NCBI GenBank assembly: GCA_017537195.1
Contig: JAFYLF010000045.1
Span: forward strand, 951 to 64,950
Length of the DNA stretch: 64,000 bases
Direction: 5' to 3'
Source of the DNA: Clostridia bacterium
GTDB lineage: Bacteria > Bacillota > Clostridia > Oscillospirales > Acutalibacteraceae
Every line of letters begins with the position of its first letter. The stretch's first letter is position 1. The notes under the pieces were generated by a model, which saw only the letters and a program-made list of their open reading frames with translations, ran no database searches and was not told where the DNA came from. The position numbers and the translations under genes were made by a program. Shown piece after piece: positions 22,231 to 24,216 of this stretch.

Positions 22231-24216
22231 CTAAATTTTATATGCCTGACGGGCAATTACGTGGTCTTGATATTCTTTATCGAGTTCAACAAAGTATGCG
22301 CTCCAACCCCAGATACGAACAACCAATTGTTTGTAGTTTTCGGGGTGTGCCTGAGCGTCAAGAAGTTGCTCGGTGTTAACGGTATTAAGCTGTAATTGAT
22401 GACCGCCAAGTTCAATATAACGTTTAACAAGAGCAGCAACCTTTTCAATACCGTCTTCATCTGCAAATACGCTTTGGTGGAATTCGAGTGTCAGCGGTCC
22501 GCCGTTTATAGCATTTTCAAAGTGCTGCTTGGTCATTGAAGCTATAACCGAAACGGGACCCTTAACCTTTGCGAAAAGGCTTACCGAATAGTTAGTACCA
22601 AAGGGTTCTTTATCTCGTCTGCCGTCAGCAGAAGCTCCGATTTCATTAGCGTGCCAGAGGTAGAACATAGCGCTGCCGGTACCTGCTCTATAGATGCCGC
22701 CGCGGCAGTTTACTCTGCCTTCAAGGCATTTAGCGAAGCTATCCAAAAGATCGGTTGCGATAGAGTCAACATAGTCATCGTTGTTGCCGAGCTTTGGCGA
22801 TTCATAGCGAAGAATTGGTAAAAGCTCGCTATGTTTTTCAAAGTTACTATCAATTGCTTCTAAAAGGGTTTGCTTATCAATAGCTTTTTCTTCAAAAACA
22901 TATTTCTTAATAGCAGCCAAAGAGTCAGCGCCTGTGGCGATACCTGTGCCGTGAATACCAAAGTTGTTATATTTTGAACCCTCGGCAACATTGCAACCCA
23001 TAAGCACATTCATAAATGGAGAGGGTACAAACCAAAGGTCTTTTATTCCGTCACAAATACGGTCACATTCGTTATTTATTTCTTCAACAACTTTTTGGAA
23101 GAAATCATCATAGGTTTCACATTCCATAAAACCGTTATGCAAAACTGTATCAACAGCCTTTGGATATGACATTGCGCCGATATTATCAACATCTGCGCCA
23201 ACGCTTGGAATAATAAATTCCCAACAAGCCGCAACGGCATAGTTTACGGCATCATTATGCTCATATCCCAATTTTTCAAGCGCAGGAATAACAATATCAT
23301 CATTTGAATATTGAGGGAAGCCAAGCCCTGCTTTTGTTAAATGTGTGCCCTTAACGTAAATTTCTTTGGGTGTATCTTTATTAACACGAAGATTAATTTT
23401 TGGGTCGATAAGTTTATTATTGCAGGAAGCCTCCATACAAAGCTCGGTTAAAAGGTTGAAGATATATTCGCCGTTTTCGTCTATACCGCCGAGCATCATA
23501 CTCTGTCCATTGTCACCTTGCTGAACACCCACATAAATATCGCTATCCTTATTGAAAGAAAGGAAGAAATCTTCAAGCAATTCGAGAGCGGTTTCTCTGG
23601 TGTAAACGCCTTTTTCAATATCTGCTTTCAAGTAAGGATACATATATTTATCAAATCTGCCGATTGTATTATGGTAGTTACCTTCAAGCCATAAAGCATA
23701 ATGTAAAATACGGAAGAACTGAAGCGCTTCACGGAAATTGCGAGCAGGATAACGCGGTACTTGTGTTAAAATCTCAACCAAGTCTTCTCTGTTCTGTCTT
23801 TTTGCTTCTTCTAAATATTTGTCAGAAAGTTTTATGATATTATCAATAGCACGTTTGCTATATTCGTCGGCTTCTTCACGCTTCTTTAGTAAGCCAGAAG
23901 AAATTGTATCATAATAATTGGGGGATAAATTTGAAATATAGCCAAGTTCGTGAATATAATATCTTTCTTTTAAATCAGTCCATTCTTTTTCAGTAAAGCA
24001 ATCAGGAAGATTAGAAACAGTACGCAAAAATACAATTTTTTCGTCAGGCAAAATAACCGCTTTTTCTTCATCGGTAATACGCTCAAAGCGGTCTGCCATA
24101 CGCTCAATGGGAGCAAGACCTTTTTGTGCATATTCTTTGCCTAAATTCCAGTCAACAGTGTGACGGTATTGATGGTGTTCCTTGTTTACAATGAAATTAT
24201 ATAGGTTTTTATTCAT
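22231..24216 (-). CDS. glycyl radical enzyme, PFL2/eliminase-like, unusually short (661 aa), substrate unknown
   Basis: C-terminal glycine motif [26 protein letters not shown] (Gly codon 22306-22308). Cys loop AVAACWEF (Cys codon 23224-23226). [19 protein letters not shown] and [12 protein letters not shown] blocks resemble dehydratase-type GREs. Confidence 0.85.
   Translation of the reverse strand: [661 protein letters not shown]

Follow-up and report, generated by a model that had tools for sequence, protein, structure and literature searches.

The short glycyl radical enzyme gene and its operon

Glycyl radical enzymes (GREs) drive gut-microbial reactions tied to health, such as the formation of trimethylamine (TMA), p-cresol, skatole, and H2S and the use of hydroxyproline. 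We describe here an unusually short GRE encoded in a stretch of 64,000 nucleotides of contig JAFYLF010000045.1 (assembly GCA_017537195.1), from a clostridial bacterium of the family Acutalibacteraceae. This whole stretch is called the window, and all coordinates refer to it. Enzymes of this short type form a very large, uncharacterised clade, of which the protein is typical; its active site is distinctive, and its genomic setting points consistently to carbohydrates.

The gene occupies positions 22231-24216 of the minus strand and encodes 661 amino acids (aa) from an ATG start; it was analysed with Pfam, NCBIfam, and a structure model. An earlier sequence-only reading had assigned it to the PFL2/eliminase type of GRE, and this assignment is borne out by two Pfam domains, both above the gathering score (PFL-like PF02901, residues 116-514, 2.3e-85; Gly_radical PF01228, residues 550-643, 4.2e-22), and by a single Cys331 followed two residues later by Glu333. 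Codon arithmetic from the start at 24216 places Cys331 at 23224-23226, Glu333 at 23218-23220, and the radical-bearing Gly637 at 22306-22308, all on the minus strand; the Cys and Gly codons are the same as those given by the earlier reading. The Cys loop, AACWEF, has one Cys only, which aligns with Cys433 of glycerol dehydratase (GD) and with the catalytic Cys of PflD. At the C-terminus, R634-I-W-G637-W638 matches the accepted GRE fingerprint RVxG[FWY] (PMC11528403), with Ile in place of Val. The earlier description of both motifs as variant holds for the CWE and RIWGW sequences themselves, although RIWGW still fits the fingerprint. The oddity of the Gly loop is the Trp placed directly before Gly, at the free "x" position.

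The open reading frame (ORF) is intact. The frame just upstream of the ATG is closed by in-frame stops (it reads KI-stop-M-stop-stop-EKIY before the initiator M), an AGGAG sequence lies about 9 nt ahead of the ATG, and the same start is shared by more than 100 homologue clusters with lengths of 659-664 aa. These three features rule out a longer N-terminus hidden by a frameshift, as the sequence-only reading had already judged, and the 661-aa length that it had called unusual is real.

Downstream of the GRE gene and on the same strand are found a GDSL/SGNH hydrolase of 243 aa (21490-22221) and a GRE-activating radical S-adenosylmethionine (SAM) enzyme, or activase, of 259 aa (20707-21486). The hydrolase carries its GDS motif at residues 7-9 and a DGLHPN sequence near the C-terminus; having no signal peptide, it is classed as cytoplasmic. 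The activase has a CX3CX2C motif (CPLRCMWC, residues 28-35) and a compact Cys-rich insert (residues 51-83), and it passes the TIGR02494 model with 253 bits against a cut-off of 174. Only 9 nt separate the GRE stop from the GDSL start, and 3 nt the GDSL stop from the activase start. At the end of the activase gene, a terminator-like hairpin on the minus strand (20692-20727; a 15-pair stem, then a T-run) probably marks the 3' end of a GRE-GDSL-activase transcript. Thus, the full GRE catalytic set is present: Gly637 within RIWGW, a single Cys331, Glu333, and an adjacent radical-SAM activase.

Upstream, a divergent intergenic region (24217-24326) contains promoter matches and a ribosome-binding site. 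A perfect sigma-70-like match on the plus strand (24264-24293) faces a gene for an AraC-family regulator, and weaker matches on the minus strand (24276-24242), together with the AGGAG ribosome-binding site, face the GRE gene. The regulator (24327-25109, plus strand), divergent from the GRE gene, combines a cupin domain of the sugar-binding type with HTH_18 and is the likely sensor for the operon.

A large clade of short glycyl radical enzymes

Short length and both motif variants are clade-wide traits and not peculiarities of this gene. The 120 nearest clusters at 90% identity (77-100% identical to the GRE) have lengths of 653-709 aa, 83 of them exactly 661 aa, and all 120 carry AACWEFI and RIWGW. 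A wider search returned 6,824 matches among 1.84 billion representatives at 50% identity. From the best 150 of these matches, full-length representatives were sorted by motif: 23 representatives combine CWE with R(V/I)WGW (median 688 aa), 16 combine CWE with RVWGF (median 700 aa), and 35 are canonical, with a GCVE-type loop and Ala, Ser, Thr, or Cys before Gly (median 788 aa). A profile built from 22 diverse short members gave 6,901 clusters at E <= 1e-50 among 8,000 candidates scored, a threshold that canonical GREs may also pass. The best 120 profile matches measure 682-696 aa, and AACWE with R(V/I)WGW was found in 119 of the 119 examined. Overall, the short clade spans 640-710 aa, with AACWE and R(V/I)WGW throughout; most of it reads RVWGW, RIWGW being the mark of the sub-branch to which the window protein belongs.

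Relatives are encoded in at least 597 GTDB species genomes. Carriers are found in the Clostridia (Acutalibacteraceae, Oscillospiraceae, and Lachnospiraceae), in the Bacteroidales (Alistipes), and in the Lentisphaerae; those in culture include Biomaibacter acetigenes (CP033169, L083), Ructibacterium gallinarum DSM 107454 (L044), and the mouse isolate 1xD8-48 (L049). Many members come from gut samples, which recalls HypD and CutC. In an alignment of 53 members (47-100% identity), Cys331, Trp332, Glu333, Arg634, Trp636, Gly637, and Trp638 are invariant. Trp332 beside the Cys and Trp636/Trp638 around the Gly occur together across the clade. In the source databases, the members are named only "pyruvate formate-lyase" or "formate C-acetyltransferase".

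The aminoacyl radical enzymes (AAREs) are, like the short clade, a non-canonical and uncharacterised PFL-like branch known mainly from gut metagenome-assembled genomes (Fu et al., 2024; PMC11528403). They have Ala, Ser, or Thr in place of the radical Gly, whereas the GRE and all its close family keep Gly; it is therefore a true glycyl radical enzyme and not an AARE. One more distant protein of 681 aa, P0165, which aligns over its full length at 33% identity, has the sequence VVRLWSSGVPF, with Ser at the radical-Gly position, and a regular-expression search found no C-x-E in it. Judged from its motifs, P0165 may be a seryl-radical-type offshoot of the short clade.

Position with respect to characterised families

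Placement among the characterised families rests on hidden Markov model scores, and the GRE reaches no NCBIfam equivalog cut-off. The highest score, 305 bits, is for the PFL2-3 subfamily TIGR01774 (cut-off 678), followed by HypD (295 bits, cut-off 1100), the sulfopropanediol dehydratases HpfG/HpsG (285 and 260 bits, cut-off 1000), the formate C-acetyltransferase model PRK09983 (252 bits, cut-off 1109), and CutC (235 bits, cut-off 1050). The arylacetate decarboxylase equivalogs give 216 and 182 bits (cut-offs 1100 and 1150). Pyruvate formate-lyase proper was rejected: its model TIGR01255 gives 83.8 bits for a cut-off of 994, and the single Cys of the GRE stands against the adjacent Cys-Cys pair of that enzyme. 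The "pyruvate formate-lyase" annotation is therefore a superfamily label only.

The best solved structures by sequence are those of propanediol and glycerol dehydratase, HypD, and PflD, with E-values of about 1e-65 to 1e-68, and identities to solved structures are 20-26% in Foldseek alignments. No short-clade member has a solved structure. A comprehensive 2026 review of GREs describes no characterised eliminase or isomerase resembling this protein and states that entire clades remain without experimental validation (2026 review). Full-text searches of the accessible literature found no publication on the short-GRE clade. The view that the protein is none of the characterised GREs, already expressed from the sequence, thus agrees with the model scores, the structural identities, and the review; its length and motifs are ordinary only within the uncharacterised clade.

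Predicted structure and active-site pocket

Compared with characterised relatives of about 787 aa, the total deficit is about 125 residues. The sequence-only reading had located the missing residues mostly at the N-terminus. An N-terminal deficit does exist, of about 60 residues, position 26 of the family profile being aligned with residue 86 of GD in a profile-to-PDB search, but it accounts for only about half of the total. The remainder corresponds to internal deletions, which amount to about 40 residues in the 689-aa form and to about 65 in the window protein with respect to GD. Relative to its 689-aa cousins, the sub-branch of the window protein lacks 17 residues after position 121, 6 after position 408, and 3 at the start.

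An AlphaFold2 model built on the 53-sequence alignment has a mean pLDDT of 90.9 and a pTM of 0.90. When compared by Foldseek with glycerol dehydratase, propanediol dehydratase, HypD, CutC, and PflD, it gives query TM values of 0.84-0.88, which supports a predicted fold shared with the solved GREs. The B12-independent glycerol and propanediol dehydratases (PDB 1R8W/1R9D, 5I2A/5I2G, 9RCO) are the top single-sequence PDB matches (1e-68 and 3.5e-68) and have the top Foldseek E-values. PflD has the highest query TM (0.87-0.88, against 0.85-0.87 for HypD and CutC) and is the top PDB match of the family profile (5e-129).

Each of these enzymes shares part of its features with the GRE. GD has in common with it the Cys/Glu pair, a His (His182, equivalent to His281 of GD), the GRFDxYMYPY and DGR motifs, and the C-terminal Gly-radical domain; in contrast, the microcompartment and aldehyde dehydrogenase context of glycerol and propanediol dehydratases is not that of the GRE. 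HypD and CutC show the same PFL2-type eliminase architecture and a CxE motif, but their motifs and lengths differ, and no amino-acid- or choline-related neighbours were seen at the GRE loci. PflD/YbiW convert 1,5-anhydromannitol-6-phosphate and 1,5-anhydroglucitol-6-phosphate into 1-deoxyfructose-6-phosphate (PDB 8YJO, 8ID0, 8ID7). They resemble the GRE in predicted fold (AlphaFold superposition), in the single Cys with CxE, and in their carbohydrate context. However, they are about 100-150 residues longer, have CVE and RVAGY where the GRE has CWE and RIWGW, and act on 6-phosphates, whereas the core module of the GRE has no kinase or phosphotransferase system (PTS) and its neighbours suggest a free sugar.

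The pocket was described by sequence alignment to GD and PflD. In the profile alignment to GD, Cys331 and Glu333 correspond to Cys433 and Glu435, and His182 to His281. The other positions differ. Asn96 (codon 23929-23931, minus strand) takes the place of His164, Asn345 (23182-23184, minus strand) that of Asp447, Gly514 that of Tyr640, and Arg510 that of Gln636; Ser282 falls in a deletion, and the loop bearing Tyr339 is replaced by the invariant loop D235-N236-G237-Q238. Ser282, Tyr339, and Tyr640 of GD are pocket residues, and His164 and Asp447 form its acid/base pair. His164 of GD is the acid that protonates the leaving hydroxyl (2026 review). PflD retains the His (in GQGHIIIDY), the Asp (in LHD), and the Tyr where the GRE has Asn96, Asn345, and Gly514, and its loop at the position of Tyr339 has the same length as the replacement loop of the GRE.

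All GRE-side residues of this comparison are invariant among members of 47-100% identity, except Arg510, which is present in 52 of 53. Because the pocket residues are kept over such a range, the whole short-GRE group probably shares one substrate and one reaction. The replacement of Tyr339 and Tyr640 by Gly and of His164 and Asp447 by Asn suggests a pocket that is probably larger and more polar than that of the diol dehydratases. Moreover, since the His/Asp pair has become Asn/Asn, leaving-group activation would differ from that of both the diol dehydratases and PflD. The lowest-confidence internal segment of the model, and the only one with a pLDDT below 50, is made up of residues 234-236 (window 23506-23514) in the invariant QQGDNGQS loop; from the model, the DNGQ loop may be a mobile substrate gate.

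Genomic context of the relatives

Loci were taken for 80 species representatives (57-91% identity) and 80 metagenome sequences (51-100% identity to member P0272, most 51-67%), with eleven further loci for eight named clade members. The resulting seed-based census comprises 142 loci of at least 6 kb each, with neighbours counted within 8 kb. The 76 loci of set A encode proteins 57-100% identical to that of the window, and the 66 dereplicated loci of set B mostly show 45-60% identity.

The most constant neighbour is the activase, found in 69/76 loci of set A and 57/66 of set B. An AraC regulator is present in 31/76 and 8/66 loci, respectively, and in set A it lies mostly in the divergent upstream position, as in the window; LacI regulators occur in 9/76 and 14/66. 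Glycoside hydrolases (GHs) of the galactose/arabinose type (GH36/GH27/GH127/GH51) accompany the GRE in 26/76 loci of set A and 20/66 of set B. They comprise GH36 of the raffinose-synthase/Sip1 type (17/76 and 5/66) and of the melibiase type (10/76 and 7/66), GH127 (1/76 and 8/66), and GH51 (4/76 and 2/66). Monosaccharide transporters are found in 4/76 and 29/66 loci. These are sugar porters of the major facilitator superfamily (MFS; 0/76 and 17/66), XylE-like, and ATP-binding cassette (ABC) systems of the CUT2 monosaccharide family (4/76 and 12/66), which are AraG/XylG/RbsA-like with RbsB/AlsB/XylF/YtfQ-like binding proteins. Mutarotase-like genes of three unrelated families occur in 8/76 and 15/66 loci, namely GalM (1/76 and 11/66), the TTE1925 type (1/76 and 1/66), and a DUF4867/ureidoglycolate-lyase-like cupin (6/76 and 3/66). 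GalK is seen in 2/76 and 2/66 loci. At least one sugar-related gene lies within 8 kb in 36/76 loci of set A and 42/66 of set B.

Gene orders make the association more concrete. A Faecalimonas genome has galK-galT-galM-GRE-activase (L060), and in another locus LacI is divergent from GRE-activase-cupin-galT-galK-galE (L090). Alistipes has activase-GRE-MFS-GalM (L087), and related forms of this module include GH127 (L152, L156, and L159). A further locus reads melibiase-GalM-melibiase-GH51-MFS-activase-GRE (L089), and in another one activase-GRE is followed by a CUT2 ABC system and GalM (L091). Since gene orders differ among lineages, the link between the GRE and sugar genes has arisen repeatedly. 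By a rough estimate, about 1-2% of genomes should have a single-copy gene no farther than 8 kb from any chosen gene. Set against this expectation, the neighbour frequencies indicate a real link to the use of galactose/arabinose-type sugars.

The GDSL esterase was considered as a defining partner, which would have pointed to an esterified substrate. This candidate was rejected: such a gene is present in 5/76 loci of set A and 0/66 of set B, and it is absent from the 91%-identical locus L003. The GDSL hydrolase is a sporadic accessory gene and not a core partner. In five loci (L004, L024, L032, L037, and L090), the DUF4867/ureidoglycolate-lyase-like cupin takes over its operon slot, placed between or just after the GRE and activase genes; in L009 and L021, a further DUF4867 gene is found no more than 8 kb away from the GRE. 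For DUF4867 (SftX/SqvB, PDB 9GYY), a cupin metalloprotein, a function as sugar mutarotase or ring isomerase has been proposed (PMC11968277).

Some genomes contain paired GREs of this superfamily, each with an activase, side by side or less than 8 kb apart. One locus has two adjacent ORFs of 766 and 679 aa in the GRE cluster (L056), and in L091/L092 the opposite strand encodes another GRE (about 733 aa) accompanied by its own activase. Such pairs recall the paired threonyl-radical enzymes (Fu et al., 2024; PMC11528403). In three loci of the Lentisphaerae type (L084-L086), the GRE gene lies between FtsJ-like methyltransferase and Sua5/YciO genes, with 4-nt overlaps, and there is no activase within 9 kb of it, whereas about 90% of the other loci have one.

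Proposed reaction and competing explanations

In our assessment, the chances are about even that the GRE cleaves a C-O bond of a free galactose/arabinose-type sugar by radical chemistry and is made with its own activase under the control of the divergent AraC-type regulator. The proposed substrate is a monosaccharide of this type, free and unphosphorylated, or one of its very close derivatives. The GH36/GH27/GH127/GH51 glycosidases would release it, the monosaccharide transporters would bring it into the cell, and a mutarotase would supply a single anomer or ring form. An optional pre-treatment by the GDSL esterase, for example the removal of O-acetyl groups from plant-glycan sugars, might be added in the window.

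The catalytic steps are proposed on the basis of the established chemistry of CxE-type GREs (2026 review). The activase would place the radical on Gly637, from where it would move to Cys331. The resulting thiyl would take a hydrogen from a hydroxyl-bearing carbon of the substrate, and Glu333, in its presumed role, would deprotonate the substrate hydroxyl to give a ketyl radical. This radical would expel the neighbouring oxygen, in a dehydration if it leaves as water and in a ring-opening isomerisation like that of PflD/YbiW if it is the ring oxygen, and Cys331 would finally give the hydrogen back to the product radical. That mutarotases of three unrelated families are partners suggests that the GRE needs one anomer or ring form and, by extension, that the reaction takes place at C1/C2 or at a neighbouring position. 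Possible products are a 2-deoxy-aldonolactone (hydrogen abstraction at C1 and loss of the 2-OH) or a ketose or 1,5-anhydroketose (abstraction at C2 and cleavage at C1); a deoxy-keto sugar might also be formed elsewhere on the ring. The stronger claim, that the clade would be the first GRE to work directly on a bulk monosaccharide of plants in free, unphosphorylated form (a single anomer or ring form of D-galactose and/or L-arabinose), is tentative, and we consider it rather doubtful.

Several observations weigh against a free sugar as substrate. The operon of the window has no adjoining glycosidase, sugar transporter, or mutarotase, and about half of the loci have no sugar gene within 8 kb. 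Among the neighbours of the 142 loci, none was recognised as a conserved enzyme that would process a deoxy-keto-sugar product downstream. Where Leloir genes stand beside the GRE, a second consumer of galactose is not obviously needed, and the adjacency of mutarotases could be explained by general membership of galactose operons rather than by a need of the GRE. Context cannot tell galactose from arabinose or pyranose from furanose. The invariant Arg510 could bind a phosphate or carboxylate, which would mean an anionic substrate. The census itself relies on ORFs called crudely (as the longest ORFs) and then clustered, with only recurrent clusters annotated, and the sole yardstick for enrichment was a rough estimate of about 1-2%, as expected of a gene at 1-3 copies per genome.

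The nearest competitor, which we consider unlikely, is a phosphorylated or anhydro/deoxy sugar as substrate, as in YbiW/PflD, with a kinase encoded elsewhere providing the substrate and Arg510 binding the phosphate. The rank of PflD as best PDB match of the family profile and as highest query TM speaks for it, as do the near invariance of Arg510 and the PfkB, FGGY, or ROK kinases found near the GRE in some loci. However, minimal regulator-activase-GRE-MFS-GalM modules contain neither kinase nor PTS, the transporters are of non-phosphorylating monosaccharide types, and mutarotases work on free reducing sugars; in addition, PRK09983 remains at 252 for a cut-off of 1109, and PflD retains the His and Asp that the short clade has as Asn. 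A little less likely again is the cleavage of a glycoside or the use of its aglycone, in which the GRE would remove the sugar by radical elimination from a linkage that resists hydrolysis, such as the Hyp-O-arabinoside or -galactoside of plant cell-wall glycoproteins, or would dehydrate myo-inositol (from galactinol) or glycerol (from galactosylglycerol). GH127, GH51, and GH36/GH27 act on extensin and arabinogalactan-protein glycans and on alpha-galactosides, and their recurrence next to the GRE would suit such substrates. HypD proves that GREs can use hydroxyproline, and the release of a single anomer would account for the mutarotases. Nevertheless, the adjoining transporters are of the monosaccharide type and not of the oligosaccharide or peptide type, the HypD model gives 295 for a cut-off of 1100, and no genes handling proline or pyrroline-5-carboxylate (P5C) were seen near the GRE in the examined loci.

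A small diol/polyol dehydratase comparable to the B12-independent enzymes, working on glycerol, 1,2-propanediol, or ethylene glycol downstream of sugar breakdown, is improbable. It is true that glycerol and propanediol dehydratases rank first in the single-sequence and Foldseek comparisons, that the CxE motif is retained, and that a few loci have genes for a rhamnosidase, or for an isomerase of the fucose-isomerase-family type and an FGGY kinase. Yet His164, Ser282, Tyr339, Asp447, and Tyr640 of GD are all replaced or deleted, TIGR01774 stays at 305 for a cut-off of 678, no aldehyde dehydrogenase appears among the recurrent neighbours, and microcompartment shell genes are found in one locus only (L090). 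Finally, the loss of about 125 residues and the bulky Trp flanking both radical-bearing residues could be taken as signs of a decaying, non-catalytic relic, in which truncations and Trp substitutions had abolished radical chemistry. This we regard as very improbable indeed. Thousands of sequences keep these features strictly, across several phyla (among the named matches, Firmicutes, Bacteroidales, and Lentisphaerae), a dedicated activase adjoins the GRE in about 90% of loci, and the confident model superposes on solved GREs; such a pattern is expected when purifying selection acts on a working enzyme.

The short clade is the shortest eliminase-type GRE group seen in this analysis. If a free sugar of the galactose/arabinose type is indeed used, the clade would provide anaerobes, gut species among them, with a radical, redox-neutral entry into sugar catabolism, beside or in replacement of the Leloir and AraBAD pathways, and the His/Asp acid-base pair of eliminases would have been swapped for Asn/Asn, with tryptophans around the Gly and Cys radical sites. 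With a common monosaccharide as substrate, carbohydrate fermentation in gut microbiomes, those of ruminants included, would have a radical branch that has gone unrecognised, and the GRE toolbox would gain a new reaction type as well as a minimal scaffold. Should the substrate differ, the short clade would still be a well-defined target with cultured carriers.

Other features of the window

Beyond the regulator lies a gene for a 513-aa protein that matches no Pfam or NCBIfam model (25124-26665, minus strand), with distant homologues of about 26% identity near a few GREs. It was rejected as a conserved partner, its clear homologues being limited to one 840-aa protein in L002 and to a cluster (c8) present in 5 loci. 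On the other side of the operon, two adjacent genes of the TauE/SafE "sulfite exporter" type, each of half size (124 and 121 aa; 19129-19865, minus strand), cover between them the N-terminal and the C-terminal half of the Pfam model; this pair adjoins the activase only in the closest relative, L003 (clusters c25/c26). A role in sulfonate metabolism, prompted by the TauE genes and by the link of DUF4867 to sulfoquinovose, was rejected, since TauE synteny is confined to that closest relative and the sulfopropanediol dehydratase scores are far below their cut-offs.

A TAXI-type pair of the tripartite ATP-independent periplasmic (TRAP) transporter class lies at 16116-19107 on the plus strand, with an NMT1_3 binding protein (317 aa) and a DctM-type membrane protein of 650 aa containing DUF3394. 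At 29012-33275, also on the plus strand, a GyrB-like protein (660 aa) is paired with a GyrA/ParC-like protein (745 aa). The former scores well below the equivalog cut-offs of both gyrB (468 of 882) and parE (388 of 900), and the latter has a faint match only to the C-terminal beta-propeller of GyrA; by these matches, the pair looks like a divergent type IIA topoisomerase. A thiamine pyrophosphate (TPP) riboswitch (Rfam RF00059, 59.4 bits, above the gathering score) is found at 11649-11765 on the minus strand, upstream of a 208-aa ORF (11010-11636). The window also contains tRNA genes at 15532-15613, 15820-15892, and 63125-63198.

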